DNA of 64,000 bases from an uncultured Candidatus Saccharibacteria bacterium (GCA_964447415.1 CAYUSN010000001.1:121727-185726); one strand, 5' to 3'. Counted from the stretch's first letter, positions 2,257-45,774 are shown. Numbers and translations: made by a program. The notes: generated from the sequence alone by a model not told the origin.

Positions 2257-2289
2257 TCCAGCACTCAGTTTTCCCAACTGAGTGCTGGA
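2257..2289. repeat. Hairpin element, copy A: TCCAGCACTCAGTT-ttccc-AACTGAGTGCTGGA.
   Basis: Perfect 14-bp inverted repeat with the same ATCCAGCAC/GTGCTGGAT tips as the elements at 11981, 23350 and 45689. GAAAATCAT direct repeats flank it at 2246-2254 and 2295-2303. Confidence 0.6.
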
Positions 2290-2357
2290 TTCCCGAAAAT
2301 CATAGTCGTTACCACTCCTTGATTTTCGGAAGTGTACCAGTTTCCGTACCAAAATAA

Positions 2358-2395
2358 AAGACCGCCCCGGTTTTCCGGGACGGTCTTTTTCGTTT
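2358..2395. terminator. Bidirectional intrinsic terminator: GACCGCCCCGG-ttttcc-GGGACGGTC flanked by an A tract and a T tract.
   Basis: Hairpin with poly-A upstream and poly-T downstream. Lies downstream of the minus-strand 2402-2653 gene. Confidence 0.6.
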
Positions 2396-2401
2396 CCTGA
2401 A

Positions 2402-2653
2402 TTACTGTGTCTGCTCGAGCTCCTGAAGGTCTGCGTCAAGCTCGGCTTCAAGACCTGAAAGGTCTTCTGCCTGAAGCTCGCTTTCGATATTGGCGACCTC
2501 CTGTTCGTCGGTTGTTTGCGCCGCCTTCTGTGACTGCAGTTCGGAGTAAAAGAAGTACCCGCCGATTGCAAGCACGATGACGACGATGATAATACCGACG
2601 ACCGGACCGTTACTTTTTGCGGTCGGTGTTTGCATGGTTTCCATTTGTTCCAT
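2402..2653 (-). CDS. Small single-pass membrane protein, 83 aa, with an acidic C-terminal tail.
   Basis: One hydrophobic helix (VVGIIIVVIVLAIGGYFFY). Terminator immediately downstream. Confidence 0.5.
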   Translation of the reverse strand: MEQMETMQTPTAKSNGPVVGIIIVVIVLAIGGYFFYSELQSQKAAQTTDEQEVANIESELQAEDLSGLEAELDADLQELEQTQ

Positions 2654-2689
2654 GAGTGATGTACTTAAAATGAATAAATAAATGCGTTG

Positions 2690-3410: not shown

Positions 3411-3956
3411 TTAGAGGTCCATTTTTTGCTGATACATGCGTGCGGCGCGCTCGATTGCCTTGAGCGCATCGGCTTTTCCGGAAAAACCGTTGATGGTAAC
3501 TTTGTTTTTTTCGGGCAGGTCGTCTTTGAGTGCTTTGTACGTTTCAAAAAAGTGCTGGATTTCACGCAGTGTGTGTTTGTTCAAATCTTCGAGGTCCTGC
3601 ACATCTTCCCATCGTTTGTCGTGCACGGGCACGGCGAGCACTTTGTGGTCGGGAAGTCCGCCGTCAACCATGTCCATGAAACCGACGGCACGAACCGTTG
3701 CAAGGATACCCGACGGAATCGGATAGGTGGCGAGCACAACAACATCGAGTGCGTCGCCGTCGTCCCACAGTGTTTGTGGTACGAATCCGTAATCAAACGG
3801 GTAGCCGGATGCGTTGAAGTTCGCGCGGTCAAGCGCGATGAGTCCCGTCTCCTTATCAATCTCGTACTTGTTGTTGGAGCCCTTCGGGATTTCAATAATG
3901 GTGTTGAATTCCTCAGGTGCATTTTCTCCGATAGGAACGTCGTGCCAGTAGTTCAT
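3411..3956 (-). CDS. ppa: Inorganic pyrophosphatase, family I.
   Basis: 181 aa matching family I PPase throughout (DHKVLAVPVHD..., Asp-rich metal site). Confidence 0.9.
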   Translation of the reverse strand: MNYWHDVPIGENAPEEFNTIIEIPKGSNNKYEIDKETGLIALDRANFNASGYPFDYGFVPQTLWDDGDALDVVVLATYPIPSGILATVRAVGFMDMVDGGLPDHKVLAVPVHDKRWEDVQDLEDLNKHTLREIQHFFETYKALKDDLPEKNKVTINGFSGKADALKAIERAARMYQQKMDL

Positions 3957-4102: not shown

Positions 4103-5413
4103 CTATTCCCCGTCTTTTTTGGTGTCGTCGTTTTCCTCAGGTGCTTTCGTTTCATCCTCGTTTTTTCCGTCGGTTTTCGGTTGCTCTGTTTCACCGCTTT
4201 GTGTTTCGGCGTCGTCGGCAAGCTCAGTGGCGACGTGCTCTACGGATTCTTCCAACACACCGTCTTCAAGAGATTCACCGCCTGCGGACTGAATATCAAT
4301 ACGCCAACCGGTAAGTTTTGCGGCCAAACGAACATTTTGTCCTCCGCGGCCGATTGCAAGTGACTGCTGATCTTCGGTGACGCGCACCACCGCGCTGTGG
4401 GTGTCTTCGTCGATAATTTCAACGGAAAGTACTTTCGCAGGTGAGAGCGCGTCTTCAATGAAATGTTCCGGAGTTTCTGACCATTCAATAACGTCAATTT
4501 TTTCTCCCGCCAATTCACTCATCACCGTGGAGACGCGCACGCCGCGCTGACCGACGAGTGCGCCAACGGGATCAATGTGATCGTCGTTTGACCACACGGC
4601 AACTTTTGAACGCGAACCCGGTTCGCGCGCGATCGCTTTGATTTCAACGACACCGGACGCTACTTCCGGACACTCATTTGCAAACAGCTCCGCCAAAAAT
4701 TGCGGGTGTGAGCGCGACAGTCGCAGAAAGACTCCGCGTGGCGTCTCTTCCACTTTGAAGAGGTATGCGCGGATGCGTTCTCCTGCGCGATACCGCTCAC
4801 CCGGAATCTGTTCGTCGTACGGTAAGATGCCCACGGCGCGTCCGAGATCAACAAAAATATTTCCGCGCTCGATGCGCTGTACGGAACCGGAAAGAATTTC
4901 TCCTTCGCGCTGGCCGTACTCTTCCGAGAGATGCTCTTTCTCGGCCTCGCGGATTTTTTGAATGATGACTTGCTTTGCGGTCTGTGCGGCGATGCGGCCG
5001 AAGTCGTCGTGCGCATCAAGCGGAAAAATAATTTCGTCGCCCAACTGTGCACCCTTCTTCATTTTTTTCGCATCTTCAAGCAGCATGTGCTTCTCGGGGT
5101 TAAACACGGGAAGTTTGACGACAAGCTCGCCGGTTTCCGAAACCTCCGGCGCTGCGGTCTCTTCTTCATCCTCGGCGTCTTCTTTGAAGCGGACCGTTGT
5201 GTCATCAACGACCGTCTTTACCTGTTCAAATTCAGTTGCGCCGGTGTTGAGGTCAAAGTGTGCGCGAATAACCTGATCACGTTTCCCGTACTCTTTTTTG
5301 TACGCGGTTGCAAGCGCAACGGCGATTGCGTCGAGTACTTTTTCTTTGGTGATGCCGCGCTCTTCTTCAAGTTCTCCGAGCACTGCGGTCAATGTTTTAA
5401 GGTCGAATGTCAT
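4103..5413 (-). CDS. nusA: Transcription termination/antitermination factor NusA.
   Basis: N-terminal domain, S1 domain and two KH domains (ALVGQRGVRV... type). Acidic C-terminal tail. Start taken as MTFDLK. Confidence 0.85.
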   Translation of the reverse strand: MTFDLKTLTAVLGELEEERGITKEKVLDAIAVALATAYKKEYGKRDQVIRAHFDLNTGATEFEQVKTVVDDTTVRFKEDAEDEEETAAPEVSETGELVVKLPVFNPEKHMLLEDAKKMKKGAQLGDEIIFPLDAHDDFGRIAAQTAKQVIIQKIREAEKEHLSEEYGQREGEILSGSVQRIERGNIFVDLGRAVGILPYDEQIPGERYRAGERIRAYLFKVEETPRGVFLRLSRSHPQFLAELFANECPEVASGVVEIKAIAREPGSRSKVAVWSNDDHIDPVGALVGQRGVRVSTVMSELAGEKIDVIEWSETPEHFIEDALSPAKVLSVEIIDEDTHSAVVRVTEDQQSLAIGRGGQNVRLAAKLTGWRIDIQSAGGESLEDGVLEESVEHVATELADDAETQSGETEQPKTDGKNEDETKAPEENDDTKKDGE

Positions 5414-5772
5414 ACGAATAGTGGTTACCGATATCTGTGAAACAAAAGTGCCGCGTCCGTTTCTGGCGCAGCAACCATACACACAATATTAATACGGACA
5501 GTATACGCCGACCCGCACGCGTGTCAACCCCGGTAGAGATTTTTCTGCTCAAAAGAGTGTAGGAGTTGTTATAGAAAGCACCTGAAGAGAAAATACGATA
5601 CCAAGTGAAGGGTGTCTCTAACGGGGTCAACTGTCTGCTGTTATCAACATATATTATATGAGCCAGACGGCTTTGTACGATACAATGAAAGCACCATTGG
5701 ACCCGCATTCTCGGCGTTCCAACGTTTCTCTATCAACATTTTTAATCGTCGTTTCGTAACCGCACTATATAT

Positions 5773-6315: not shown

Positions 6316-6338
6316 CCCGGCTGTACTTCAAACCAACT

Positions 6339-8540
6339 ATGAAAAAATATTTTAAACTGCCGATACTCACCGCAACCCTTGTACTTCTGGGTTTTTCTCT
6401 GTTTCCGAACGCCGCACAGGCAATGTGTGATCCGCTGTATGGAGACGGTGAACGAAATCCGCGTATTGATAACCCAGGCTCTGTTTCTCTGAGTGCCGAC
6501 CAAAACACGCTGAACGTCTCAGGTGCCATGTGGTACCCAGGAGCTCTTTGCCCCGATCCATCGGCGGAAAAAGAGGGGCAGATGGACAGTTTTGTTCAAG
6601 GGGCGTCTCCCTCAATAGTGGGACCGTCTCAAAATAGGACAACAGCGGGACCACACACATACTCAGGTTCTCTCAATGTTTCTGCATTGCCCAACGGTAC
6701 GTATACACTCACGCTCGTTGTCGACAGTATTTTCGGTGTTCCCGGCGAGGATTTTGCGTATCACCAATTTACTATTACAAACCGCAATCCGCTGACAGTT
6801 GGTTCCTGTTCAGGAAGTCCGAACCCGGCGACAACAGGCTCCTCAATGACGTGGTCAGTTCCTGTTCCGACAGGAGGAACGGGGAGCTACACGTATTCGT
6901 GGAGCGGGACGGACAGCCTGGGCGGTACTACGCGCACGGTCAACAAAACATATACAACGACCGGAACAAAAAACGCATCGGTTGTCGTGACGTCAGGCGC
7001 GGAGCAGGTTACGAAAAACTGCAGTATTACCGTGAATGCACCAGCAAGCAATCCGACATGTTTGCCTAGTCCATCCACGGTAACAACAGGACAAACAACA
7101 AGTATCTCCGCTTCAGGTGGCAGTGGCGGTACATCACCGTATTACACTTGGAATACAGATGGCGGTTCATCGTGTGCGGCGGGAACACCGTGTAGCACAT
7201 CGTGGACGACGACGGGCACAAAGAACGTGACCGTAACACGCAACGGTGTAACATCGCCGTCTTGTCCGGTGACGGTGGGTCCGCCTACCAACTACACACT
7301 GACCATCAATAAAGTCGCTGATCCGATTACAGGTGACGGAACAGACTACGCCAATGTCACCAGTGTTAGTCCCGACGGTCAGATTTCGTGCTCGGGAACA
7401 TGTAATACAGATACGGGCTCGTATGCTGCAAGTACTGTGATAAATACTAATACGTCAATCACTTCACCGGGAACATGGGTGGGTCTCGGTGCGGGTTCTG
7501 ATGCAGCATGTGGTGATCCGATGACGATGCCGGCGCGTAACGTGACGTGCAATATGGTATTCGGACTTGAAACTCCTCCTGATGACGATGACGACCCGCC
7601 GACGGGTATCGCATGTAGCGGTCCGGCAAACGTTGCGCAGGGCGATGAGGCGACATTTACCGTGTCGGGCGGCTCATCTCCGTACTCATGGTCATCAACG
7701 GGAAATCCGGGCAGCGGTTCGGGAACAAGCTACACTACCAGTTGGGGATCGCTTGGCACAAAAACCGTGACGGTCTCCGGTGGCGGAAGTGATACCTGTT
7801 CTATCTGTGTCGGCGCGTTTGGTTCGTGCGATGAACCTAATCCACCACCGACCGCAACGGTTCATATCAACGGATTTTTAACACCGCAAAACATTACTGC
7901 AGGACAATCGGCGACGGTGGGTTGGTCATCCACAAATGCGGCAGGGTGCAGGCTAACATCTTCTCCGGTTGATTCCGGTTGGAATGAGCTAGTCGCTGGA
8001 ACAAGTGGTTCGAAAGTACGGTCTCCTTCGGCAACAACTATATACACCGCACGCTGTACGGGGCTTGGCGGCTCTGCGTCAGATTCAAACACACTCAACG
8101 TCACTTCGTCTCCGCTTTCCTGCGACCCTCCGGTACAGGGGACGTATCTCAACACAAATGCAACAGTCAATGCGTCGGGTGGTACCGGGAGCTACACGTG
8201 GAATACGGGCGGCGGCACAACATGTCTTCCCGGTTCATCGTGTACAACACAGTATTCAACAACGGGTGCCAAGACGGTAACACTCTCTGACGGGTCGGGA
8301 GTCGCATACTGCACCATTAACGTTACCGTGCCCCCTGCTGCTCTGACGTGTGCTCCAACGACGCAGGAAATTGCGCCTGGCGCAACGGCAAACTTCACCG
8401 GCTCCGGAGGATCCGGAGGTCCGTACTCGTGGTCCGCTCCGGGCGGCACTCCGTCAACCGGAATAGGCACAATTTTTGCATCTCTCTTTAGTACAGCCGG
8501 AACGTACTACGTGACGGTAAGCGAAAGTGCATCCGATTAA
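6339..8540 (+). CDS. Large secreted repeat protein with PKD-like repeats and a divergent InlB B-repeat-like domain.
   Basis: Signal peptide. Repeated ~75-aa Cys-bracketed T/S/G-rich modules (…YTWS..GG…TGTKTVTV…). A ~95-aa module (NYTLTINKVADPITGDG…ARNVTCNMVFGL) is shared with the next gene. Confidence 0.75.
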   Translation: MKKYFKLPILTATLVLLGFSLFPNAAQAMCDPLYGDGERNPRIDNPGSVSLSADQNTLNVSGAMWYPGALCPDPSAEKEGQMDSFVQGASPSIVGPSQNRTTAGPHTYSGSLNVSALPNGTYTLTLVVDSIFGVPGEDFAYHQFTITNRNPLTVGSCSGSPNPATTGSSMTWSVPVPTGGTGSYTYSWSGTDSLGGTTRTVNKTYTTTGTKNASVVVTSGAEQVTKNCSITVNAPASNPTCLPSPSTVTTGQTTSISASGGSGGTSPYYTWNTDGGSSCAAGTPCSTSWTTTGTKNVTVTRNGVTSPSCPVTVGPPTNYTLTINKVADPITGDGTDYANVTSVSPDGQISCSGTCNTDTGSYAASTVINTNTSITSPGTWVGLGAGSDAACGDPMTMPARNVTCNMVFGLETPPDDDDDPPTGIACSGPANVAQGDEATFTVSGGSSPYSWSSTGNPGSGSGTSYTTSWGSLGTKTVTVSGGGSDTCSICVGAFGSCDEPNPPPTATVHINGFLTPQNITAGQSATVGWSSTNAAGCRLTSSPVDSGWNELVAGTSGSKVRSPSATTIYTARCTGLGGSASDSNTLNVTSSPLSCDPPVQGTYLNTNATVNASGGTGSYTWNTGGGTTCLPGSSCTTQYSTTGAKTVTLSDGSGVAYCTINVTVPPAALTCAPTTQEIAPGATANFTGSGGSGGPYSWSAPGGTPSTGIGTIFASLFSTAGTYYVTVSESASD

Positions 8541-11852: not shown

Positions 11853-11980
11853 ATGCGCCCCGTCGTGTATATTTTTCCGTGCACGGCCAAAGAATACAGG
11901 CAGTCTCACATATACAAGAGGCAGAGGTCCTGTAGAGGTCGACAACTCTTTTAGAGTGGCCCGTGCGGTCATTTTTTTTA

Positions 11981-12278
11981 TCCAGCACTTAACTTTGTCT
12001 TGCTAGTGTGAGCGCGTGATCTACGTATACGTGCTACAAAACAAGTCTGGCGAGCTGTACATCGGGTCAACAAACAATCTAAAGCGAAGAATGTTTGAGC
12101 ACGAGAAAGGTCTATCGGCTTCAACAAAACACACTTCGTGGAAGTTGGTGTATTACGAGACGTATATTTCCAGTGTTGATGGGCGAGAGCGCGAGCATCA
12201 ACTGAAATATCACGGACAGGCGAAACGTCATTTAAAGAATCGGCTCAAACATTCTTTAAGACAAAGTTAAGTGCCGGA
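11981..12278. mobile_element. Hairpin element, copy B. A 21-bp inverted repeat (TCCAGCACTTAACTTTGTCTT / AAGACAAAGTTAAGTGCCGGA, one mismatch) encloses the whole GIY-YIG ORF.
   Basis: The arms bracket 12016-12270, and the right arm overlaps the stop codon. Same conserved tips as copies A, C and D. Confidence 0.5.
12016..12270 (+). CDS. Small GIY-YIG nuclease family protein (UPF0213/YhbQ-like), 84 aa.
   Basis: N-terminal (V)IYVYVL…GELYIGSTNNLKRR…EH motif matches the GIY-YIG fold. GTG start. Confidence 0.7.
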   Translation: MIYVYVLQNKSGELYIGSTNNLKRRMFEHEKGLSASTKHTSWKLVYYETYISSVDGREREHQLKYHGQAKRHLKNRLKHSLRQS

Positions 12279-12297
12279 TGAATTTAAGAAAAACACT

Positions 12298-13393: not shown

Positions 13394-13436
13394 GAGAAAA
13401 CACCCCCCCCCTGCACAGGGGGGGGGGTGTTTTCTG
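13394..13436 (+). terminator. Intrinsic terminator with a homopolymeric stem: AAAACAC-C9-tgcaca-G10-TGTTTT.
   Basis: A C9 run and a G10 run form the stem, with an A tract before and a T tract after. Confidence 0.6.
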
Positions 13437-13472: not shown

Positions 13473-15476
13473 ATGATATATAAGAAACATCTCTTCCTCG
13501 TACTTGCGTCACTCATGTTGGCAACCCCCGTGTCTGCAGCAACCGTGCCGGTGTTTGATTGGGTTGCTGCACGAACCGACTCACTTATTGGTCTTCAGGG
13601 AGGATTCAGTGTGGCCTACACACCAGCAGTTGATTCGGCTGATGGCAGTATCTACATCTCGAATTTTTTTACAGGGACACCTGATTTTGACCCTGGAGCA
13701 GGAACGGATTCCATTGCTTCAAATGGAGAGGAGGATAACTTCCTCTCCAAGTTTGATTCGAATGGCGCATACCTATGGACAAAAACATGGGGGGGCACGG
13801 GAAGAGAGCGCACGCTAGGAGCCACAGTTGATGGCAACGGAAACGTCTATAGTGTGGGCACATTTTCAAGCACGGTTGATTTTGATCCAGGAGCTGGGAC
13901 ATTCTTTGCTACATCAACAGGCGGTACTGATAACTTTGTTTCAAAATTTGATTCCGATGGAAACTTTATTTGGGCAAAGACGTGGGGGAATGCAAGCAAC
14001 CAAAACACCCTCCGAATGGTTACAACAAACGATACAGGAGATGTTTTTGTGCACGGACACTTTACAGGTACGGTTGATTTTGATCCGAGCGCTGGAACGG
14101 CATTTGCAACATCAACGGCAGGGAATGATATTTTTCTTTCAAAATTTGACTCGGATGGAAACTTTGAGTGGGTGAAAGCGTGGGGAGGGACAGGGGACGA
14201 CGGTTCATCGGGAGTTAAAATTGCGAATGACGGAGCGCTCTTCTTTACAGGTATTTTTACGAACACAATTGATCTTGATCCAAGCGTGGCTACTGCCTCA
14301 TCAACATCAGCAGGAAGTTATGATAGATATTTTTTGAAACTTTCTACAACAGGTGATCTTGTGTATGCAAAAACATGGGGAGGAACCGGATTTGATTCTG
14401 CCGGGGAACTTCAGTTTGGGAATGGTGATGCGGTGTATGTTTTTGGAGGATTTTCAAGCACGGTTGATTTTGATCCAGGTCCTGGCGAGGCGTTTGCGAC
14501 ATCAACAGGAGGTTTGGACGCATACTTTTCAAAATTTGATGCTGATGGAAATTTCGAATGGGTAAAAACATGGGGAGGCTCGGGGACCGACGTTGCTGTT
14601 AACGCGGTTGTGAATGAAAACACCCTTACTGTTGTTGGATATTTTTCAAGCACGGTTGATTTTGATCCAAGCGCCGGAACTGACTCAAAAGTATCTGTAG
14701 GAGGACTTGATGTGGCCATCTCTACATACTCACCAGATGGAACATATATCCGTACGGACACATTCGGTGGTTCGCTCGACGATTTTCTTGATTCGTTACC
14801 ACAGGGCGTGGCCTTTGGTTCGGACACGCTCGTTCTCGCAGCCTATTACAAAAGCGCACCCGCCGATTTCGATCCAGGTCCTGGAGTTTCGTCTGCATCA
14901 TCAAATGGAACATCGCTCTACATTTCTTCCCTCAACCTCGTTGAAGCTTCAGTCGGAGTCTCCCCGACATCAGGTACTGCCGAAGAGGGGGGTGATACGC
15001 TCACCTACGATATTGTGCTCAATGCTCCGCCGACTGATGACGTCGTCATCACTGTTACCCCCGACAGCCAACTCTCAGTTTCCACAACAACACTCACGTT
15101 CGCCTCAACCACATGGGACACACCGCAGACAGTGACGGTCACCGCGGTTGACGATGAGGAAAACGAAGATGACCCGCACACCGGCGTTGTGACGCACACT
15201 GCGGCCTCAGACGATGCATTGTATGACGGCATTACCGTCGGAAGCGTGACCGTGTCAATTGATGAAAACGATTCATCCGGTGGCGGTGGCTCCTCGCGTA
15301 GTACCCGCGCCATTCAGGCACTCACCGACACCGAGCCCGAAACACTTCCGCCTGCAGTACCGTTGACACCCGAGCAGGTGCAGGAGGCAATAGTCAAGGT
15401 GAAACAACAACTCATCATCGTTATCCAACAGCTTATCGTGCTGCTACAGGAAGAGATTGCAAAACTCTCCAGATAG
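13473..15476 (+). CDS. Secreted SBBP-type beta-propeller repeat protein with a Calx-beta/cadherin-like beta-sandwich and a conserved C-terminal motif. Paralog 1 of 3.
   Basis: Signal peptide MIYKKHLFLVLASLMLATPVSA. About 8 repeats of the form …VDFDPxxGTxxATSxGGxDxFxSKFDSDGxFEWVKTWGG…. C-terminal …SSGGGGSSRS…QQLIIVIQQLIVLLQEEIAKLSR. Confidence 0.75.
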   Translation: MIYKKHLFLVLASLMLATPVSAATVPVFDWVAARTDSLIGLQGGFSVAYTPAVDSADGSIYISNFFTGTPDFDPGAGTDSIASNGEEDNFLSKFDSNGAYLWTKTWGGTGRERTLGATVDGNGNVYSVGTFSSTVDFDPGAGTFFATSTGGTDNFVSKFDSDGNFIWAKTWGNASNQNTLRMVTTNDTGDVFVHGHFTGTVDFDPSAGTAFATSTAGNDIFLSKFDSDGNFEWVKAWGGTGDDGSSGVKIANDGALFFTGIFTNTIDLDPSVATASSTSAGSYDRYFLKLSTTGDLVYAKTWGGTGFDSAGELQFGNGDAVYVFGGFSSTVDFDPGPGEAFATSTGGLDAYFSKFDADGNFEWVKTWGGSGTDVAVNAVVNENTLTVVGYFSSTVDFDPSAGTDSKVSVGGLDVAISTYSPDGTYIRTDTFGGSLDDFLDSLPQGVAFGSDTLVLAAYYKSAPADFDPGPGVSSASSNGTSLYISSLNLVEASVGVSPTSGTAEEGGDTLTYDIVLNAPPTDDVVITVTPDSQLSVSTTTLTFASTTWDTPQTVTVTAVDDEENEDDPHTGVVTHTAASDDALYDGITVGSVTVSIDENDSSGGGGSSRSTRAIQALTDTEPETLPPAVPLTPEQVQEAIVKVKQQLIIVIQQLIVLLQEEIAKLSR

Positions 15477-15504
15477 ACCGGAACTTAAAAATCAACTACC
15501 CCAT

Positions 15505-17484
15505 ATGACATATAAAAAACATCCCTTTCTCGTACTTGCGTCACTCATGTTGGCAACCCCCGTGTCTGCAGCAACCGTGCCGGTGTTTGATTGGGTGAAT
15601 ACGTGGGGAGGAACAGGGAGTGATTCCGGTTCGAACGTTGTTTTTGACGGAGATGAAAATATCTATACCGTTGGTCGTTTTAATGTAACTACCGACTTTG
15701 ATTCCAGTGCAGGTACCGCATATGCGACATCAAGTGGTGAGGGAGACGCTTACTTATTAAAATCAGATCCAAATGGAATCTTTGAGCTGGTAAAAACATG
15801 GGGTGGTAGTGGTGATGACACTGCTAGTTTGGTTAGTTCTGACGGACTAGGTGGGCTTGTTGCATCCGGACGATTCTCAAACACCGTTGACCTAGACCCT
15901 GACGTAGGCACTGTGTTTGCAACATCAAGTGGCGGATATGATATGTATCTTTCCAGATTTGATACGGACGGTGTGCTTGAATGGTCGGGTGTCTGGGGTA
16001 GTACAGGCAGTGATGTCGGTGCGTTTGTTGTCCCCACTTTCAGTGACGCTGTTTATGTTATGTCTAACTTTGCCGGCGTCATTGATTTTGACCCTGGTGT
16101 AGATACTGCCTTTGCGACATCAAGTGGTGGATTTGACATGGCCCTTTCCAGGTTTAACTCAGACGGCATTTTTGAATGGGTGAAGACATGGGGAGGAACA
16201 GGCAACGAAATTCTGGGGGGCAGTTCATCGGTGGGACTTGACGGGGTGGGAGGAGTGTACGTTCTCGGTAATTTTAGTGGTACGGTTGATTTTGATCCCA
16301 GTGTCAGCACCACTTATGCAACCTCAAGCGGATCAGCGGATGCTTTTGTGTCTAAGTTTGACTCGGACGGTACGTTTGAATGGGTGAAAACGTGGGGAGG
16401 AACAGGGAGTGATGGGGCGCGCGGGGTGTTTTTCGATGACGAAGATAATATCTATATGATTGGTTCTTTTGCGAACACCGTCGACTTTGACCCTAGTGCA
16501 GGTACCGCGTATGCAACCTCAAGCGGAAACGCTGATGCTTCACTCTCCAAATTTGACTCAGAAGGTACATTTGAGTGGGTGAAGGCGTGGGGCGGAACAG
16601 GTAATGAGTTTGTAGAAAACGGTGCGGTTAATGAGGGTGATGTCTATGTATTTGGTTCTTTTGCGAACACGGTTGACTTTGATCCGAGCGCCAGCACCGC
16701 CTTTGCAACTTCAAACGGATCAGACGACGCCTTCGTGTCTAGGTTTAACTCGGAGGGTACGTTTGAATGGGTGAAGACATGGGGAGGAACCTCATCAGAC
16801 ACCTCCAAACATATGAATTTTCTCGATGGAAAAGCATTTATAAGCGGTACTTTTCAAAACACCGCCGACTTTGATTTCTCTCTCGGAACAGAAAACCGAA
16901 CATCGGCCGGTTCCGGTGATGTGTATCTCCTTGTCCTCAACCTCCTCGAACCCGCCGTCACCGTTTCTCCAACCTCGGACAGTTTAGACGAAGCAGGTGC
17001 CGGCACTTTTGACTACGACCTCGTGCTTGCAACGCCGCCCGAGAACGACGTCGTTATCACCATCACTCCTGATGTACAGGTGTCTGTGTCCACCACGTCA
17101 CTCACCTTCGCTTCAACCACATGGGACATTGCACAGACAGTGACGGTGAGTGTTGTTGACGATGAGGAGAACGAAGACGATCCGCACACCGGCGTCATAA
17201 CGCACACCGCAGTATCAGATGATGCGGCATATGACGGTATTACTATCAGCAGTGTGACGGTGTCAATTAACGAGAACGACTCGTCCGGCGGCGGTTCTTC
17301 ACGAAGCAGTGTGCGCGCTGTTCAGGCAATCACCGATGTTGAACCCGAGACACCCCCGCCCGCAGTACCGCTGACGCCTGAGCAAGTACAGGAGGCGATA
17401 GACAAGGTGAAACAACAGCTTGTGGCCGTTCTTCAACAGCTTATCGTGCTGCTACAGGAAGAGATTGCAAAACTCTCCAGATAG
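15505..17484 (+). CDS. Secreted SBBP-type beta-propeller repeat protein, paralog 2 of 3.
   Basis: Signal peptide and C-terminal motif identical to paralog 1. Start MTYKKH at 15505. Confidence 0.75.
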   Translation: MTYKKHPFLVLASLMLATPVSAATVPVFDWVNTWGGTGSDSGSNVVFDGDENIYTVGRFNVTTDFDSSAGTAYATSSGEGDAYLLKSDPNGIFELVKTWGGSGDDTASLVSSDGLGGLVASGRFSNTVDLDPDVGTVFATSSGGYDMYLSRFDTDGVLEWSGVWGSTGSDVGAFVVPTFSDAVYVMSNFAGVIDFDPGVDTAFATSSGGFDMALSRFNSDGIFEWVKTWGGTGNEILGGSSSVGLDGVGGVYVLGNFSGTVDFDPSVSTTYATSSGSADAFVSKFDSDGTFEWVKTWGGTGSDGARGVFFDDEDNIYMIGSFANTVDFDPSAGTAYATSSGNADASLSKFDSEGTFEWVKAWGGTGNEFVENGAVNEGDVYVFGSFANTVDFDPSASTAFATSNGSDDAFVSRFNSEGTFEWVKTWGGTSSDTSKHMNFLDGKAFISGTFQNTADFDFSLGTENRTSAGSGDVYLLVLNLLEPAVTVSPTSDSLDEAGAGTFDYDLVLATPPENDVVITITPDVQVSVSTTSLTFASTTWDIAQTVTVSVVDDEENEDDPHTGVITHTAVSDDAAYDGITISSVTVSINENDSSGGGSSRSSVRAVQAITDVEPETPPPAVPLTPEQVQEAIDKVKQQLVAVLQQLIVLLQEEIAKLSR

Positions 17485-17512
17485 ACCGGAACTTAAAAAT
17501 CAACTACCCCAT

Positions 17513-19522
17513 ATGACATATAAAAAACATCCCTTTCTCGTACTTGCGTCACTCATGTTGGCAACCCCCGTGTCTGCAGCAACCGTGCCGGTGTTTGATT
17601 GGGTAAACGGAGGGGACAGTTCTCTGATAAATACTACCATCGGTGGTTCCGCCCAAGTGTATAAAGTTGAAGTTGATACAAACGACGGGAGTATCTATGT
17701 TTCCGGACAGTTCACCGGCACACCCGATTTTGATCCGTCGGGCGATACGGACGAAATTGCTTCGGCGGGCGACAGAGACGCCTTTCTTTCTAAATTTGAT
17801 GCGGACGGCGGATATCTTTGGACGAAAACGTGGGGTTCAACCGCAGCTGACATTATTCGTGATGCGCTTGCCGTAGACACGAACAGCGACGTCTACGTTG
17901 CAGGTTCGTTCAGAGGAACGGTTGATTTTGATCCAGGTCCTGGCGAGGCGTTTGCGACATCAACAGGACAGAACGATGTGTTTTTCCTTAAACTTAATTC
18001 CGACGGAGAATTTGTGTGGCTCAAAACATGGGGCAAAACAGGATCAGAAACAGGATTCCCGTTTGATATAGAGGAAGCAACGGACGGGGGGGTTTTTGTA
18101 TACGGCGGATTTGACGGAACGGTTGATTTTGATCCAGGTCCTGGCGAGGTGTTTGCCACATCAACAGGAAGTGTTGATTTTGTGCTTTCAAAATTTGATG
18201 CAGACGGTACGTTTCAGTGGGTGAAAACATGGGGAAGCACCGGTTTTGATAGCGCGACATCCCTACATGAGGGTGAAGACGGATCGGTGTATCTTATGGG
18301 CCTATACGCTGGTACGACGGACTTTGATCCCGGCGCGGGCGTTGTATCGGTCGGGACAAACGGCGGTTCCGATGCGTTTGTTCTCAAACTTGATACGGAC
18401 GGATTGTTCCAATGGGTTCGTGTATGGGGGGGAGCTTCTACCGACGTCGCATACAGCGCAAACACCGACTCTACAGGCGGTTTGTATGTAGCGGGTTATT
18501 TTCAGGGCACTGCAGACTTAAATCCAACTGACGGTACAGCGACCACAACATCTGCAGGAGGCACAGACGCACTTCTCATGAAACTCGATTCAGACGGCAA
18601 TTTTGAGTGGGTGAAGACGTGGGGGAGCACGGGGTCGGACGATGTTCGTAAAACGGTTTTCTTTGACGACGGGTATCTTGTTCTTGGTAGGTTTTCGGAA
18701 ACCGTCGATTTTGATCCTGATGCCGGAGTAGATGAGAAGGTGGCGGCTGGTTCGGACGTGTCAATGTCTCTTTTCAATTTGAATGACGAGTATATACGCA
18801 CCGACACGTTCGGCGGGGCGCTTGATGAGTGGGTAGACAACGCTCCTGACAATAATTTGTCTTCGGGTAAGGCTCTTTTCGGCGGTTTTCACAAATCAGA
18901 TCCTGCCGATTTTGACCCGTCGGGGAAGGTGGCAGAACACTCAGGCGGTGGGGTGGATACAATGTATGTTGTCTCCTTCACCATGACGGAGCCGGCTGTC
19001 ACCATCACCGCATCCGACACAACGGCGTCCGAGGCGGGCGACACGGCGGCGTATTCCGTAGTCCTCACCGCGCCTCCGCATGAGGACGTCGTTGTTACTC
19101 TTACACCTGACAACCAGCTTTCTGTTTCTACCACTTCACTTACGTTCACGTCTGCAACGTGGGACATGCCGCAGACAGTGACGGTTACCGCAGTTGACGA
19201 TGAGGAAAACGAAAATGACCCGCACACCGGCGTCGTGACGCACACTGCGGCCTCAGACGATGTGTTGTATGACGGCATCACCGTCGGAAGCGTGACCGTG
19301 TCAATTGATGAAAACGATTCATCCAGCAGCAGCTCCTCGCGTAGTGCCCGTGCTATTCAGGCGATTACCGGCGCTGGGCCCGAAACACCTCTACAAACGG
19401 CACCGCTGACGCCCGAGCAAGTGCAGGAGGCAATAGTCAAGGTGAAACAACAACTCATCATCGTTATCCAACAGCTTATCGTGCTGCTACAGGAAGAGAT
19501 TGCAAGGCTTTCTGTCCAATAG
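17513..19522 (+). CDS. Secreted SBBP-type beta-propeller repeat protein, paralog 3 of 3.
   Basis: Same N-terminus and C-terminal motif. Start MTYKKH at 17513. Confidence 0.75.
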   Translation: MTYKKHPFLVLASLMLATPVSAATVPVFDWVNGGDSSLINTTIGGSAQVYKVEVDTNDGSIYVSGQFTGTPDFDPSGDTDEIASAGDRDAFLSKFDADGGYLWTKTWGSTAADIIRDALAVDTNSDVYVAGSFRGTVDFDPGPGEAFATSTGQNDVFFLKLNSDGEFVWLKTWGKTGSETGFPFDIEEATDGGVFVYGGFDGTVDFDPGPGEVFATSTGSVDFVLSKFDADGTFQWVKTWGSTGFDSATSLHEGEDGSVYLMGLYAGTTDFDPGAGVVSVGTNGGSDAFVLKLDTDGLFQWVRVWGGASTDVAYSANTDSTGGLYVAGYFQGTADLNPTDGTATTTSAGGTDALLMKLDSDGNFEWVKTWGSTGSDDVRKTVFFDDGYLVLGRFSETVDFDPDAGVDEKVAAGSDVSMSLFNLNDEYIRTDTFGGALDEWVDNAPDNNLSSGKALFGGFHKSDPADFDPSGKVAEHSGGGVDTMYVVSFTMTEPAVTITASDTTASEAGDTAAYSVVLTAPPHEDVVVTLTPDNQLSVSTTSLTFTSATWDMPQTVTVTAVDDEENENDPHTGVVTHTAASDDVLYDGITVGSVTVSIDENDSSSSSSSRSARAIQAITGAGPETPLQTAPLTPEQVQEAIVKVKQQLIIVIQQLIVLLQEEIARLSVQ

Positions 19523-20162: not shown

Positions 20163-20187
20163 CCGTTCACCTTTTTTTCACACCCCA

Positions 20188-23345: not shown

Positions 23346-23349
23346 TTAA

Positions 23350-42224: not shown

Positions 42225-42277
42225 GAATAGCACATATACTCCTACATTCTGTGTGTTTCAGTTGCTATACTATTCGT

Positions 42278-45037
42278 ATGGAACGTTTTTCCGTTACCCC
42301 TGAAACAAAATTTTCCTCAGCAGAGCAGGAGGCGGCATTTTTGCGGGAACGGCTTAAACAACTAGAGCAAAACGTTGATGCGGGTACGCACGAGCTCGTG
42401 CACACAGGTACTGAAGAGGAAATTACGCGTACCTACGCAAAAACCGCCCCCGATAAAGTGCTTGCCAAGGGCCATGAAATGCTCCAGCCGGAAGTTGATG
42501 CTGTGGTGCTTGATTTGGCGCCTGAGGAGCACGACACCATCATGGGTGAGCTTTTGACGTTGGTTCGTGAGAAAGGTGTCCGTAACGCGCTTTCTGTTGT
42601 TGAGAAACTTCACGATGCCCATGTTGAGGACGACTTTCATCGCTTTTTGGCCGAGTATCTGAAGGAAGGGTATGCAACGAAAGGTGTTAAAGAGGGCGAG
42701 CCTTTGTGGAAAGCGCTCCACATGACGCTTCTGGAGGTGACACTGCCGTTTGCCGCCTCCGACGCACAGGAACATCAAAAACCTCTGAAGGAACTGCTAT
42801 CGTCCATGGAGCAGTTTTATGCCGGCGCCTTGTCGGTTGCGGAGGAAAAAGGTTCCAAGAAAAACTATTTTGCCCTTGAACTTGCGGTTGAGTCGCATCA
42901 GGAGCATGTGGTGCTGTATCTCTCCGTTCCGGTGGAGAAAGTGCCGCTGTTTGAAAAGCAATTGCTCTCCATTTTTCCGCAGGCGCGCATCGAAGTCTCG
43001 AAAAACGACTACAACATCTTTGTTCCGGAAGGACAGACGGCGGGTTCCGTTGCCTCATATGCACAGCCGTCCGCGTATTCAATAAAAACACACGAATCGT
43101 TCGACTACGACCCGCTCAATATTCTGCTCTCGGCTTTCGGAAAACTCCTGCGCGTCGGTGAAGGAGCGGCGGTACAAGTGCTTGTTCGGGCCGCACAAAC
43201 CGACTATGCGGCGACATACCGGAAGGCGCTTGAAAAAATACTGAAAGGGACGCCTGTGAAAGAGGCGCTTAAGGAAAAATCGGTGGTGTCCTCAATCGGC
43301 AAGGAAATTAACGAGCTCTTTTTCATGACGAAAGAGAAAAAAGACAAGAAAAAAGAAAAAGAGCGGGAACACCCCGTGGACGATATCGCGGTTGAGCAGA
43401 TTAAACAGAAAATTTCGCACCCGATTGCCGAAGTGAACGTGCGCTTGCTTGCATCCGCAACCTCACAAACGCGCGCTGATGCAATTCTTTCGGATATTGA
43501 AGCAACCTTCAGCCAGTTTAATGAACCGCGCGGGAACGCGTTTGCATTTACTCGCGTCAAACCCGGCAACATCAAGGTTCTTATAAAGAACTTTGCGTTC
43601 CGCCTGTTTGCAGACGGCGACGTGATGCCGATGAATCTCCGCGAGATCGCATCTTTTATCCATGTTCCGTCAACGAGCGGCGATGCATCGCGCGAACTGA
43701 AGCGTTCGAAATCTACTGTGACGCCCGCACCGATAGACCTTCCGCAAGAGGGCGTACTTCTCGGTTACAACACATACGGTAACCAGCAGACGCCCGTGCG
43801 CATGCTTCCGGAAGACCGTCTGCGCCATCTCTACTGCGTCGGACAGACCGGTGTAGGAAAGACAACGCTTTTGAAAAATATGATTATCCAAGACATCAAA
43901 AACGGTGAGGGTGTGTGTATGATTGACCCGCACGGCACAGACCTCATTGATGTGCTTTCACAAATTCCTGCGGAGCGCTGGGATGATGTGATTTATTTTG
44001 ATCCTGCGTATACACCGCGCCCGATGGGACTCAACATGCTTGAGTACGATACACGCTATCCCGAGCAAAAAACATTCGTGGTTAACGAGGTGTTCTCCAT
44101 CTTCCAGAAGCTGTACGGCAGTGTGCCCGAGTCAATGGGACCGATGTTTGAACAGTATTTCCGTAACTCGGCCATGCTCGTGATTGAAGATCCGGAGACG
44201 GGTAACACGCTGTTTGATGTCTCTCGGGTGATGACCGATAAGGCATTTCGTGACCTGAAGCTTTCCCGCTGTAAAAACCCTGTGGTGGTGCAGTTTTGGC
44301 GTGAAATCGCCGAAAAAGCGGGCGGTGAAGCCTCGCTTGCCAATATCGTGCCCTACATCTCGAGTAAATTTGACGTGTTTTTGGCAAACGACATCATGCG
44401 TCCGATTATTACGCAAAAGAAATCGGTCTTTAATTTCCGCGAAATCATGGATGAGCGCAAGATTCTTTTGGTGAACCTTTCAAAGGGTCGTTTGGGCGAC
44501 ATCAACGCAAACCTCATCGGACTCATCATTGTCGGCAAGATTTTGATGGCGGCGCTCTCACGAGTTGATATGCTCGGCACAAAAGACATTCCGCCTTTCT
44601 ATCTGTATATCGACGAATTTCAAAATGTGACGACAGACTCTATTGCAACAATTCTCTCGGAGGCACGCAAATACAAACTGGGGCTCAATGTGTACCACCA
44701 GTACATCAAACAGCTTGATGAGAAAATCCGCGATGCGGTGTTCGGCAACGTCGGCACCATCTGCTCCTACCGTGTGGGTTCCGAAGATGCGGAGTTTTTG
44801 GAAAAACAATTTACACCGGTATTTACCGCAAACGATCTCATGAATGTCGACAACTTTAACGCGTTTCTCAAACCGCTCATCAGAAATAAAACAGAGCGCC
44901 CATTTTCAATCTACATACCCAACACAGAAAAAGGAAACCCGGAGGTGATTGAAACACTCAAACAGCTTTCGTACAACCGATTCGGACGTCCGCGCGAAGA
45001 AGTCGAAGCGGAAATCGGCTCGATGTACAAGGTGTAA
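42278..45037 (+). CDS. Type IV coupling protein-like (VirD4/TraG, FtsK/HerA superfamily) ATPase, fused to a ~480-aa N-terminal domain of unknown function.
   Basis: Walker A YCVGQTGVGKTTLL, then MIDPHGTDL, then Walker B-like FYLYIDEFQNV. Start MERFSV at 42278. No N-terminal TM helices. Confidence 0.65.
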   Translation: MERFSVTPETKFSSAEQEAAFLRERLKQLEQNVDAGTHELVHTGTEEEITRTYAKTAPDKVLAKGHEMLQPEVDAVVLDLAPEEHDTIMGELLTLVREKGVRNALSVVEKLHDAHVEDDFHRFLAEYLKEGYATKGVKEGEPLWKALHMTLLEVTLPFAASDAQEHQKPLKELLSSMEQFYAGALSVAEEKGSKKNYFALELAVESHQEHVVLYLSVPVEKVPLFEKQLLSIFPQARIEVSKNDYNIFVPEGQTAGSVASYAQPSAYSIKTHESFDYDPLNILLSAFGKLLRVGEGAAVQVLVRAAQTDYAATYRKALEKILKGTPVKEALKEKSVVSSIGKEINELFFMTKEKKDKKKEKEREHPVDDIAVEQIKQKISHPIAEVNVRLLASATSQTRADAILSDIEATFSQFNEPRGNAFAFTRVKPGNIKVLIKNFAFRLFADGDVMPMNLREIASFIHVPSTSGDASRELKRSKSTVTPAPIDLPQEGVLLGYNTYGNQQTPVRMLPEDRLRHLYCVGQTGVGKTTLLKNMIIQDIKNGEGVCMIDPHGTDLIDVLSQIPAERWDDVIYFDPAYTPRPMGLNMLEYDTRYPEQKTFVVNEVFSIFQKLYGSVPESMGPMFEQYFRNSAMLVIEDPETGNTLFDVSRVMTDKAFRDLKLSRCKNPVVVQFWREIAEKAGGEASLANIVPYISSKFDVFLANDIMRPIITQKKSVFNFREIMDERKILLVNLSKGRLGDINANLIGLIIVGKILMAALSRVDMLGTKDIPPFYLYIDEFQNVTTDSIATILSEARKYKLGLNVYHQYIKQLDEKIRDAVFGNVGTICSYRVGSEDAEFLEKQFTPVFTANDLMNVDNFNAFLKPLIRNKTERPFSIYIPNTEKGNPEVIETLKQLSYNRFGRPREEVEAEIGSMYKV

Positions 45038-45101
45038 GGTGTTTCTTGCCCGTACTGCGGGCGTCTGATACGATGGTGCCGTTACACATAGCATTTTTAG
45101 C

Positions 45102-45686
45102 ATGAAAAATCCAAAAGAGGAGAAGACATTCGTGATGATTAAACCCGACGGCGTGCGGAAAGGACTTGTCGGCGAGATTATCAAACGCTTTGAACAGCGT
45201 GACATGAAGATTGTGGCGCTTGAAATGTACCAACCGACCCTTAAACAGGTTGATAGTCATTACCCGAAGGATAAAGCATGGGTTACCCGTCTTGGGGAAA
45301 AGACTTCGGCGACATACGAGAAGTACGGATACTCTCTAAAAAGTCATTTTGGTACTGATGACAAGTTTAAAATAGGAAAAGAAGTCCGTAGTTGGTTATT
45401 GAAATACATGACATCCGGGCCGATTGTGAAAATGGTCGTGCAAGGTGTTCATGCGGTTGATATGATTCGGAAAATTGTCGGTCCGACTCTGCCATATTCT
45501 GCTGAAATGGGCACGATTCGCGGAGATTTCTCCGCGGACTCACCGGCGCTGGCAAATGCCGAGAAACGCGCCGTTATGAACCTTGTTCATGCGTCAGAAA
45601 CACCCGCAGAAGCGGCGCACGAGATCAAACATTGGTTTGGGAAGGAGCCGATTTATGCCTATAAACGCTTCGGCATTGATGAATGA
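45102..45686 (+). CDS. ndk: Nucleoside diphosphate kinase, long variant with insertions.
   Basis: ERTFVMIKPDGV signature. Active-site His context NLVHAS. Confidence 0.8.
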   Translation: MKNPKEEKTFVMIKPDGVRKGLVGEIIKRFEQRDMKIVALEMYQPTLKQVDSHYPKDKAWVTRLGEKTSATYEKYGYSLKSHFGTDDKFKIGKEVRSWLLKYMTSGPIVKMVVQGVHAVDMIRKIVGPTLPYSAEMGTIRGDFSADSPALANAEKRAVMNLVHASETPAEAAHEIKHWFGKEPIYAYKRFGIDE

Positions 45687-45688
45687 AC

Positions 45689-45774
45689 CCAGCACTTAAT
45701 TTACCCTGTGTTTTTTGGTTTGGTGAGGATTGGTTAGTAAGGAACGAGGGAAAAATGATACGATGTGCATGAAT
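45689..45774. repeat. Hairpin element, copy D. A 13-bp inverted repeat CCAGCACTTAATT…AATTAAGTGCTGG encloses ~60 nt.
   Basis: Begins 2 nt after the ndk stop. Same tips as copies A to C. Confidence 0.6.

Follow-up and report, generated by a model that had tools for sequence, protein, structure and literature searches.

The hairpins in the window (the whole 64-kb stretch analysed, which comes from a relative of Candidatus Campbellbacteria) are probably copies of a selfish palindromic insertion element, widespread in Patescibacteria, that is driven by a UPF0213/Slx1-like nuclease and has MITE-like ORF-less derivatives. This family of small palindromic insertion elements is previously undescribed: the original prediction, made from the sequence alone, knew of no such family, and no published description of this hairpin/GIY-YIG family was found in the literature. 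Its core reading, mobile hairpins with a GIY-YIG nuclease in the place of RAYT and a full-length copy accompanied by derivatives, is supported by the association of gene and hairpin, by presence and absence among relatives and by the arms. Related copies also explain some of the unexplained insertions inside CPR rRNA genes. We infer that the nuclease is the mobilising enzyme, as well as the transposition chemistry set out below.

Hairpin loci in the window

All four hairpin loci originally predicted are real, and their arms were found again in the window. These inverted-repeat loci, A to D, have the tip (A)YCCAGCAC…GTGCYGGA(T) in common:

2246-2254 (left) and 2295-2303 (right): 9-nt direct repeat GAAAATCAT flanking copy A, with spacers of 1 nt and 4 nt
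2256-2290, unstranded: copy A, mini-hairpin without an ORF, ATCCAGCACTCAGTT-TTCCC-AACTGAGTGCTGGAT, lying upstream of minus-strand tig
11980-12280, plus strand: copy B, full-length 301-bp element, supported by its fold and an empty site in three relatives
23349-23481, unstranded: copy C, hairpin without an ORF in the tuf-rpsJ spacer
23400-23420, unstranded: extra degenerate right arm CGGGAAGTTGTCGTATCTGGA in copy C
45687-45786, unstranded: copy D, hairpin without an ORF that abuts the ndk stop codon

Three exact CCAGCAC…GTGCTGG pairs in the window head extended stems; 500 first-order Markov simulations yielded no such hairpin, and CCAGCAC is the only 7-mer of the window that heads at least three of them. 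A lone GTGCTGGAT at 3552-3560, within a pyrophosphatase gene and with no partner, is probably there by chance. The inner stem had been described as different at each locus; the copies do vary, but their inner arms are not unrelated: each is a version of the arm of the GIY-YIG copy B, CCAGCAC-TNAAYTT. Copies A, C and D (35-133 bp, with perfect arms of 13-20 bp) hold no credible ORF and, as expected of MITEs, combine terminal inverted repeats and small size with the lack of a transposase gene.

Copy A has a perfect stem of 15 bp and a loop of 5 nt. The GAAAATCAT repeat around it, which had been proposed as a target-site duplication, is real and may be a duplication from insertion, but it is not a general one because copy B has none. 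In copy C, the arms at 23350-23369 and 23461-23480 are perfect over 20 bp with a spacing of 91 nt, and the extra arm suggests a nested or duplicated end. The right tip of copy C runs into a conserved CTGGACA box upstream of rpsJ (TGGACA, -35-like), a box also kept in relatives without copy C. The promoter-like motif facing rpsJ that had been noticed in this copy stands as a match to the consensus and nothing more. In copy D, the arms at 45689-45701 and 45772-45784 are perfect over 13 bp with a spacing of 70 nt; the end first given, 45774, falls about 12 nt short of the true one, 45786. Both copies had been placed 2-4 nt past the stops of tuf and ndk; copy C begins 3 nt past the tuf stop, and copy D immediately past the ndk stop.

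The full-length copy and its nuclease gene

Copy B lies directly 3' of the T-run of a terminator-like hairpin (the L10 leader) and upstream of rplJ. Its parts are as follows:

11980-12001, plus strand: left arm ATCCAGCAC-TTAACTTTGTCTT
12016-12270, plus strand: GIY-YIG nuclease gene with a GTG start, 84 aa, single-domain (Pfam)
12087-12100, plus strand: internal stem P3, AAGAATGTTTGAGC (codons RRMFEH), pairing with 12243-12256, GCTCAAACATTCTT (codons RLKHSL)
12258-12280, plus strand: right arm AAGACAAAGTTAA-GTGCCGGAT, encoding the nuclease's last residues ..RQS*

The arms, taken as 11977-12001 and 12258-12282, are 92% complementary with a spacing of 256 nt; the right tip GTGCCGGAT has one mismatch to the consensus, and the TAA stop codon of the nuclease gene lies inside the right arm. 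The complete GIY-YIG ORF said to be enclosed in the largest copy is thus confirmed, matching the GIY-YIG domain PF01541 with a Pfam E-value of 2.9e-13. Residues Y5, Y15, G17, R25, H29 and E60 are invariant, the catalytic residues among them. The closest solved structures are the UPF0213 proteins BH0048 (E = 2.4e-10) and EF2693 (E = 7.8e-7), followed by SLX1, a structure-specific nuclease (E = 1e-3). With a single domain, a length of 84 aa that suits the branch's range of about 85-105 aa and its best similarity to UPF0213 and SLX1 nuclease domains, the protein fits the UPF0213/YhbQ-Slx1 branch.

The gene does not fit the I-TevI type of homing endonuclease: the GIY-YIG domain is present, but the protein, at only 84 aa, has no separate DNA-binding domain or linker, its TIGR01453 score of 26.5 is under the cutoff of 56, with only positions 4-40 of the 215-position profile matched, and the element gave no match to a group I intron or anything else in Rfam. 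A predicted catalytic domain of 84 aa without a DNA-binding domain may be insufficient for mobility.

Association of the nuclease gene with hairpins in Patescibacteria

The original prediction had named a GIY-YIG gene never linked to such repeats elsewhere as evidence against it. Of 80 GIY-YIG homologues in the genomes of other Patescibacteria, about 75-77 lie within a hairpin with C-rich/G-rich tips or directly beside one: 52 have an enclosing inverted repeat of 12-25 nt, a further 20 have a tip-motif hairpin starting no more than about 35 nt (mostly 7-25 nt) from the end of the gene match, and three have one just upstream of the gene. The association between gene and hairpin is near-obligate. 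The same architecture was found before greA, in the holB-frr interval and, as a tandem pair, before a 23S gene. At roughly one locus in four the gene is beside the hairpin and not inside it (type II), so that the mobile unit is not uniquely defined. The ORF is intact in 47 of the 51 enclosed (type I) elements examined.

The tip sequence changes along with the protein clade (CCAGCAC, CCCGCACAC, CCCCCACACC, CCCCGCACC and CCCGTGAG), and in 14 of 18 cases another hairpin at a locus belongs to its tip class. The short copies had been taken for deletion derivatives, and the ORF-less arms are indeed recognisably those of the GIY-YIG copy: the arms of copy D and of a mini-hairpin in L099 match those of copy B, and 18 of 20 positions agree between an ORF-less arm in L004 and the GIY-YIG arm. 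As expected of MITEs, the short copies have their ends in common with a longer coding element. The arms of ORF-less copies carry sequence derived from the coding region of the nuclease C-terminus, which fits deletion derivatives and not independent host hairpins.

Mobility and target sites

A comparison of orthologous loci, which the original prediction had called for, showed that the copies are not identical in position: copy B is absent from three relatives, each with a clean empty site, and copy D is absent from L103 and present in L102 with a different interior. In the near-isogenic relative L102, a different GIY-YIG element occupies a site that is empty in the window and in L103, both of which have a single (G/A)TATAC there. 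With copies B and D, this element provides the insertion polymorphism between related genomes that is expected of MITEs. Relatives also carry hairpins with the same tips and another GIY-YIG element at other sites.

Landing sites are intergenic spacers, tRNA gene ends and 23S rRNA helices. A tRNA gene end is overlapped or abutted by 10 of 68 elements, compared with about 0.3 expected, and an element is found 3' of tRNA-Gly in five species. Although the window has no rRNA gene, three hairpins in the 23S gene of L004 replace or extend helices and are missing from L013, which has a GIY-YIG copy at another 23S site; among the relatives, it is in L004 that the loop of a 23S helix is replaced by an extended stem, as in 23S intervening sequences (IVS). 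A 299-bp element in the L004 23S gene (6952-7250) holds a different ORF, of 73 aa, hydrophobic and with no Pfam match. Orientation to neighbouring genes is random (21 co-oriented, 23 opposed). Target repeats vary, with none at copy B, the 9-nt offset repeat at copy A, a 6-bp palindromic GTATAC core in L102 and repeats of 10-12 nt at the tRNA-Gly sites, and a target-site duplication consistent across the family is not apparent.

Structure and covariation

Compensatory changes preserve the pairing of the outer stem and of two internal stems. In the outer stem, double changes occur at 10 of 16 pairs, and the two further stems, inside the ORF, covary, the amino acids changing together with them (RLSE with SESL; RMFE with LKHS). 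The share of elements whose own pairing exceeded the 95th percentile of cross pairs between elements was 100% for P1, 55% for P2 and 68% for P3. As z-scores, the fold stabilities of copies B, C and D are -7.6, -8.0 and -3.8. Stem mismatches comprise 14 G·T and 13 A·C; with no excess of G·T, an RNA-level role receives no direct support from them.

Proposed mechanism and alternative explanations

The full-length unit is about 300 bp long, with a C-rich left tip, a short promoter region, a gene for an 84-90-aa UPF0213/Slx1-type GIY-YIG nuclease and a G-rich right arm formed by the 3' end of that gene; the ORF-less hairpins A, C and D would be internal-deletion derivatives keeping the arms. The nuclease could act on the folded or palindromic DNA of the arms (a hairpin, a cruciform, or the palindromic junction that an excised or tandem copy would form) and could thereby start copying or reinsertion. 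New sites may be picked by short identity with the tips, possible examples being CTGGAC at copy C, the GTATAC core of the L102 site and CCTACCCGCACA at the tRNA-Gly 3' end. Through its long, perfectly paired stem the insert would fold out of host transcripts, and RNase III might then excise it, in the manner of classical 23S intervening sequences. If so, insertion into operons and rRNA would be nearly harmless.

It is also conceivable, if unlikely, that the hairpins are RNA or DNA structures serving the host (in transcript ends, processing, stability or as rRNA expansion helices) and that a free-standing homing endonuclease, the GIY-YIG protein, targets them, its gene nesting in or beside a hairpin that is a target outside the mobile unit. 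Copies do lie exactly at gene ends (the tuf stop, the ndk stop, the L10-leader T-run), and type II genes adjoin the hairpin. The tuf-rpsJ spacer of relatives holds other, unrelated hairpins, and this, or the persistence of copy D at one site in two genomes with a changed interior, could point to a host-useful hairpin there. However, the hairpins are themselves insertions, as the absence of D in L103 and the interruption of 23S helices in one genome only indicate; the coding-derived arms of ORF-less copies also speak against this explanation, and a T-tract 3' of the stem is absent from all four copies, A to D. Slightly less probable again is mobilisation in trans by a different enzyme, for example a tyrosine or HUH recombinase that works on folded single strands in the manner of attC or REP/RAYT, the GIY-YIG gene being frequent cargo only, for example an addiction, defence or repair gene. 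The element combines conserved tips with inner stems that vary yet stay complementary, which is the hallmark of an attC site, the type II arrangement of ORF plus hairpin resembles a gene cassette with its attC site, and the 299-bp L004 element carries a different ORF, of 73 aa. Nevertheless, nearly every member of the GIY-YIG clade is tied to a hairpin whose tip changes with the protein, and copies are single and scattered, not in arrays. No recombinase adjoins the element in the Pfam-annotated loci (L001, L004, L098-L100, L102, L103); a single Phage_integrase gene was seen, in L003, and it lies some 7.5 kb away from a GIY-YIG copy without conserved tips. The tips are also unlike attC RYYYAAC/GTTRRRY cores and REP GTAG/CGTC heads.

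A third reading is improbable, in which the unit is mainly a structured RNA (an autoregulated mRNA silenced by folding back, or a processing module linked to rRNA or tRNA) that spreads vertically with occasional recombination and not by transposition. The three covarying stems span the entire ORF and mask the start region, and the recurrence after tRNA-Gly would suit such a module. The random orientation, the stems without G·U bias, the lack of an Rfam match and the insertions that differ among near-isogenic genomes argue against it.

Comparison with known systems

REP/REPIN sequences with their RAYT are similar in having short palindromic repeats scattered in intergenic DNA and a single small gene flanked by inverted repeat copies, with the repeat co-varying with the protein. 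The present element differs in its enzyme, a GIY-YIG nuclease (PF01541) and not a Y1 HUH transposase, in its tips, (A)YCCAGCAC or CCCSCACAC and not GTAG/CGTC heads, in its arms of 13-25 bp enclosing up to about 260 nt, and in a copy number per genome that is apparently low, with four family copies in the 64 kb of this genome that were examined. Bacterial MITEs such as the Correia elements of Neisseria and Rickettsia palindromic elements likewise have non-autonomous hairpin copies of 35-130 bp with terminal inverted repeats and internal promoter-like sequences, which are inserted beside or within genes and RNA genes and are potential RNase III substrates. Here, by contrast, a candidate autonomous partner of only about 300 bp can be identified, a regular TA-type target duplication is not apparent, and arm complementarity within a copy is perfect though copies differ from each other.

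With GIY-YIG homing endonucleases (I-TevI, Seg proteins) the element has in common the catalytic core with its conserved Tyr, Tyr, Arg, His and Glu and a selfish, insertion-associated lifestyle, and with the UPF0213/YhbQ-Slx1 branch the best structural relatives of its protein. Unlike either, it has neither a DNA-binding domain nor an intron, its gene lies within its own inverted repeat, and there are derivatives that lack the ORF. To our knowledge, UPF0213 proteins have no link to mobile DNA, and none was found in the literature.

Integron gene cassettes and attC sites also combine conserved tips with a variable self-complementary interior, and the type II unit is alike in pairing ORF and hairpin. 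The element copies are solitary, and no integrase or cassette array was seen beside them in the Pfam-annotated loci. An attC site was rejected on its R''/R' cores, RYYYAAC…GTTRRRY being absent at the tips in general; the ACTTAAC…GTTAAGT of copy B alone is fortuitous and inside the conserved tip, where relatives have CACTAAC and similar sequences.

The 23S IVS of Salmonella, Leptospira and Coxiella and the CPR rRNA insertions resemble the element in that a terminal-inverted-repeat stem replaces or extends rRNA helices, including the helix-25 region, some copies carry a small ORF, and the distribution is sporadic. Unlike them, the GIY-YIG element has most of its copies away from rRNA, in spacers between genes and at the ends of tRNA genes, and its ORF does not encode the 23S_rRNA_IVP four-helix protein of the IVS. 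A survey of CPR rRNA genes reported GIY-YIG ORFs in non-intron insertions, seemingly 'outside the context of homing', and termed these insertion sequences 'uncharacterised' (Tsurumaki et al. 2024, PMC11270868). As a text search of that paper gave no occurrence of 'inverted repeat', 'hairpin' or 'palindrom', neither the hairpin architecture nor the conserved tips are apparently covered there.

Hairpin elements of the window

All four hairpin loci of the original prediction were found in the window and share their tips; the copies lie where they had been placed, except that the end given for copy D was ~12 nt too small. Copy B is the full-length element with the GIY-YIG gene, and copies A, C and D are ORF-less.

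Copy A, 2256-2290: perfect 15-bp stem with a 5-nt loop, upstream of tig
Copy B, arms 11977-12001 and 12258-12282: 25 nt each, 92% complementary, 256 nt apart, between a terminator-like hairpin with a T-run and rplJ
Copy C, arms 23350-23369 and 23461-23480: 20 nt, perfect, between tuf and rpsJ
Copy D, arms 45689-45701 and 45772-45784: 13 nt, perfect, directly after ndk

In every copy, the left end starts with (A)YCCAGCAC and the right end finishes with GTGCYGGA(T). The inner arms, which had been described as differing at each locus, are not unrelated, as all of them are variants of TNAAYTT, the arm of copy B.

A chance origin of the hairpins was rejected on the basis of simulation and 7-mer counts. 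In the window, CCAGCAC…GTGCTGG occurs three times as an exact pair with an extended stem, compared with none in 500 Markov simulations, and CCAGCAC is the only 7-mer that heads at least three such hairpins there. As single strands, the copies fold far more stably than their shuffles (z = -7.6 for B, -8.0 for C and -3.8 for D). Classical intrinsic terminators were rejected because no T-run follows the stems, and integron attC sites and REP elements because the tip consensus did not fit. No tRNA or rRNA was identified in the window, and no Rfam family was detected in the window or the related loci at gathering or E-value thresholds.

The GIY-YIG protein

The ORF in copy B (12016-12270) encodes 84 aa with a complete GIY-YIG domain (Pfam E = 2.9e-13) and no further domain, and its catalytic residues are invariant across homologues. 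Among solved structures, it is closest to two single-domain UPF0213 proteins, BH0048 and EF2693, with the structure-specific nuclease SLX1 next in rank. With the group I intron endonuclease family profile, the protein was far under the cutoff and matched only the first ~40 profile positions. The stop codon is within the right arm, therefore the last codons (..RQS-stop) are the inner right arm. The database look-up gave no exact-sequence match to the protein, probably because its start differs from the called one or because it is not on record. The family comprises 223 clusters (50% identity) at E ≤ 1e-10.

Numerous relatives of the 84-aa protein (e.g. P0258, P0263, P0269 and P0306) have lengths of 220-610 aa and an N-terminal GIY-YIG domain; these are either fusions with other domains or the result of read-through past the stop into the flanking gene.

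Association of the gene with hairpins across Patescibacteria

A genome scan with one genome per species identified 116 relatives, and the best 80 of the 116 loci were retained. These 80 are mostly labelled as Patescibacteria-group or candidate phyla, with three labelled otherwise; the labels include Kaiser-, Nomura-, Zambryskii-, Giovannoni-, Wolfe-, Colwell- and Vogelbacteria, Paceibacterota and Saccharibacteria. The EF-Tu of the window has its closest named relatives in Candidatus Campbellbacteria (90% identity).

In 52 of the best 80 loci, a near-perfect inverted repeat of 12-25 nt encloses the gene (type I), while in 20 the gene lies beside a hairpin with the same kind of tip, which starts at most ~35 nt (mostly 7-25 nt) from the end of the gene match (type II). 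The hairpin is just upstream of the gene in 3/80, and no hairpin was present near the gene in another 3/80. The ORF was intact in 47 of the 51 type I elements examined. Metagenome homologues were located in the holB-frr interval, ahead of greA and, as a tandem pair, ahead of a 23S gene, and the repeat flanking them is the same throughout (CCCAGCAC-TNAACTTTG…CAAAGTTNA-GTGCTGGG). The tips are lineage-specific (CCAGCAC, CCCGCACAC, CCCCCACACC, CCCCGCACC and, in the relative's locus L102, CCCGTGAG) and track the protein clade, and the local tip class was also found on other hairpins at the same locus in 14 of 18 cases. The window shows no enrichment of the L102 tip motif CCCGTGAGATA.

The palindromic insertion elements, accompanied by a minimal GIY-YIG gene and by MITE-like derivatives, form a real family that extends across the lineage. 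We observed its architecture, the association of gene and hairpin, covariation, polymorphic insertions, and targets in rRNA and tRNA. The family behaves like rRNA intervening sequences and like REP/RAYT systems, yet it is a member of neither. We found no published account of a GIY-YIG/inverted-repeat family in CPR/Patescibacteria, including in the MITE/REP and UPF0213/YhbQ literature.

One 54%-identical homologue (L003:10001-10261), situated among tRNA genes, lacks the conserved tips, has only a weak repeat (GTACAGG…CCTGTAC), and may have decayed or diverged from the rest of the family.

A covarying fold within the coding sequence

Besides the outer stem (P1), the full-length element has two internal stems. 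In P2, the region just 5' of or across the start codon pairs with codons ~20-31, and in P3, codons ~24-29 pair with the last ~6 codons. The positions of both are conserved, and the nucleotides used differ in each homologue. RNAalifold on a MAFFT alignment detected compensatory changes in 10 of 16 P1 pairs and gave the outer stem alone, because the internal stems are in shifted registers. A self-versus-cross-pair test was therefore used, in which the left half of an element was scored with its own right half or with that of a distant homologue. For P1, the mean was 18.6 for self-pairing against 6.6 for cross-pairing, and all elements were above the 95th percentile of cross pairs; for P2 and P3, 55% and 68% of the elements were above it. 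The amino acids of the paired segments also co-vary (RLSE with SESL, RMFE with LKHS), which indicates that the nucleic-acid fold constrains the protein. Such covarying stems within a coding gene clearly illustrate how a nucleic-acid fold can limit an amino-acid sequence.

Whether pairing is selected in RNA can be considered from the mismatches and the orientation of the gene. Stem mismatches were 14 G·T and 13 A·C, with no excess of G·T, and the orientation of the GIY-YIG gene relative to its neighbours is random, which argues against reliance on read-through transcription. Together, these results do not separate RNA-level from DNA-level selection; if anything, they favour a structure needed on either strand.

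Insertion polymorphism and spread

Syntenic loci for comparison were found by means of EF-Tu and NDK homologues. At the copy B site, three syntenic relatives are empty, with GCCGTTTTTTT running directly into GTTTAACAC and on to the ATG of rplJ, whereas the window has T8, then ATCCAGCAC…GTGCCGGAT, then GAATTTAAG. Copy B is therefore a clean insertion, without duplication or with at most a palindromic AT. At the copy D site, the near-isogenic relative at L102 (NDK 97% identical) carries a hairpin in the same position with a different inner arm, the interior being 45% identical compared with 86-89% for the flanks, and an 89% relative (L103) is empty.

The L102 locus also contains a second GIY-YIG element (5213-5585; 51% identity to the window's protein) with an adjoining ORF-less hairpin. 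Both have the tips GTATAC-CCCGTGAGATAA and represent a second family, and the window (~46150) and L103 have a single (G/A)TATAC at this site. Mini-hairpins with the same tips were present at other sites in relatives (L099, 12840-12867; L100, 6512-6580). The original prediction had allowed for conserved regulatory hairpins fixed at identical orthologous positions, or for a GIY-YIG ORF that elsewhere never accompanies such repeats. The empty sites of copies B and D, the L102 element and the same-tip hairpins elsewhere in relatives argue against these readings, and most of the best 80 loci carry hairpins.

The ORF-less hairpins can be related to the full-length elements by their arms. In the groundwater CPR contig L004, the arm of an ORF-less hairpin (TCCAGCACTAACTTTGGCAT) is identical at 18 of 20 positions to the GIY-YIG arm of the same genome, and the matched arm is coding sequence for the nuclease C-terminus. 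The arms of copy D and of the L099 mini-hairpin match copy B. Arms are perfectly complementary within a copy, yet differ between copies, which requires either selection for pairing or the copying of one arm from the other.

The tuf-rpsJ spacer contained other hairpins in related loci: a 123-nt inverted repeat (AGAACGCATTCGATAGCCCTCA…) at L098:11203-11374 and L099:11203-11325, and a short G-first hairpin, CAGTGTGCGA…TCGCACACTG, resembling reversed tips, at L100:11117-11190. Hairpins seem to be attracted to this spacer, or needed in it.

Targets in 23S rRNA and tRNA genes

Three hairpins in L004 carry CCAGCAC tips and take the place of 23S rRNA helices or lengthen them; the helix-25 region, the classical IVS site, is among those affected. 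Two GIY-YIG copies are located just upstream of this 23S gene. Another related locus, L013, is without these hairpins and has a GIY-YIG copy at a different 23S position. One hairpin element in the 23S rRNA gene of L004 (6951-7251) matches the GIY-YIG copies in size (inner length 285) and tips, but its cargo differs: a 73-aa ORF, encoded on the opposite strand, whose C-terminal half is hydrophobic and for which Pfam gave no match.

The ends of tRNA genes were overlapped or abutted by 10 of 68 elements, compared with ~0.3 expected (L025:9908-10293, and elements at L048, L061, L063, L091, L023, L078, L090, L056 and L057). The tRNAs were Gly (three anticodons), His, Phe and Leu. In 8 of the 10, the C-rich tip is the 3' acceptor strand of the tRNA itself, and in at least seven of those eight, at tRNA-Gly and tRNA-His loci, the opposite arm is followed by 6-12 nt that repeat the tRNA end, such as CCTACCCGCACA. 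The resulting small hairpin at the far end, G-arm-CCTA-C-arm, is a truncated "mini-tRNA" of 5' acceptor strand, 4 nt and 3' acceptor strand; at L061, the acceptor variant CTCGC has its counterpart in the G-arm GCGAG. Such an arrangement resembles integration into the 3' end of a tRNA and restoration of that end.

When the elements were searched for a common target-site duplication or a consensus in the flanks, no one rule covered them. The tRNA ends, together with GTATAC at L102 and CTGGAC at copy C, suggest integration where a few bases match the tips. We infer that targets are chosen by microhomology with the tips, in a manner equivalent to recombination of a short target core with a palindromic junction. 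A solitary exact GTGCTGGAT without a partner arm, at 3552-3560 in the inorganic pyrophosphatase gene (minus strand), is probably due to chance and would be a candidate target of this kind.

Possible mechanism and significance

By acting on folded or palindromic DNA, the nuclease probably confers mobility, and the stem may render the insertions harmless at the RNA level. A more far-reaching proposal, which we consider doubtful, is that the ~300-bp unit constitutes an autonomous mobile DNA element made up solely of its inverted repeat and, folded within it, a gene for a single-domain Slx1/UPF0213-like nuclease, and that it moves via a nuclease-cut palindromic intermediate. This intermediate would be a hairpin, a cruciform or a circle/tandem junction (G-arm-core-C-arm); the structure-specific nuclease would cut it, and the element would reinsert at sites sharing a few bases with the tips, such as tRNA acceptor ends, with every move restoring perfectly complementary arms. 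If autonomous, it would be, to our knowledge, the smallest known DNA mobile element, with a transposition chemistry distinct from that of DDE, HUH, serine and tyrosine enzymes. If the nuclease drives movement, the elements would provide an extremely compact system for the study of structure-directed DNA insertion. The widespread, uncharacterised UPF0213-type minimal GIY-YIG proteins would gain a first biological role from this family.

Although CPR/Patescibacteria have tiny genomes that are regarded as poor in mobile DNA, unexplained insertions abound in their rRNA genes. The proposed mechanism, if true, would account for many of the "uncharacterised" ones, and part of them gains a concrete, testable identity through the hairpin structure, the motif at the tips, the partner nuclease and the derivatives without an ORF. 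The elements are also a natural marker of strain-level variation in uncultured bacteria. A survey of CPR rRNA genes reported many short uncharacterised ORF-less insertions (Tsurumaki et al. 2024, PMC11270868); the terms "inverted repeat", "hairpin" and "palindrom" are absent from its text.

Other features of the window

The stretch upstream of rplJ (11860-11975) is conserved in four genomes (GGCAG.CTCAC…AGAGGTCCT..GAGGTCGAC.ACTC…, then a hairpin and T-run). It matched no Rfam family and is probably an L10-leader-type regulatory RNA. After rplL, where rpoB and rpoC would be expected, there are three large ORFs of ~670-700 aa (13473-19522). The 700-aa ORF at 17420-19522 had only six metagenome matches (33-39% identity), with no syntenic loci among them, and the corresponding interval in relatives contains small unannotated ORFs and an MS-channel gene. 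Perfect palindromes of 17-19 nt outside the family, at 13395-13435, 50087-50128 and 20181-20214, are probably bidirectional terminators; one of them, AGAAAACACCCCCCCCC/GGGGGGGGGTGTTTTCT, is located after rplL.
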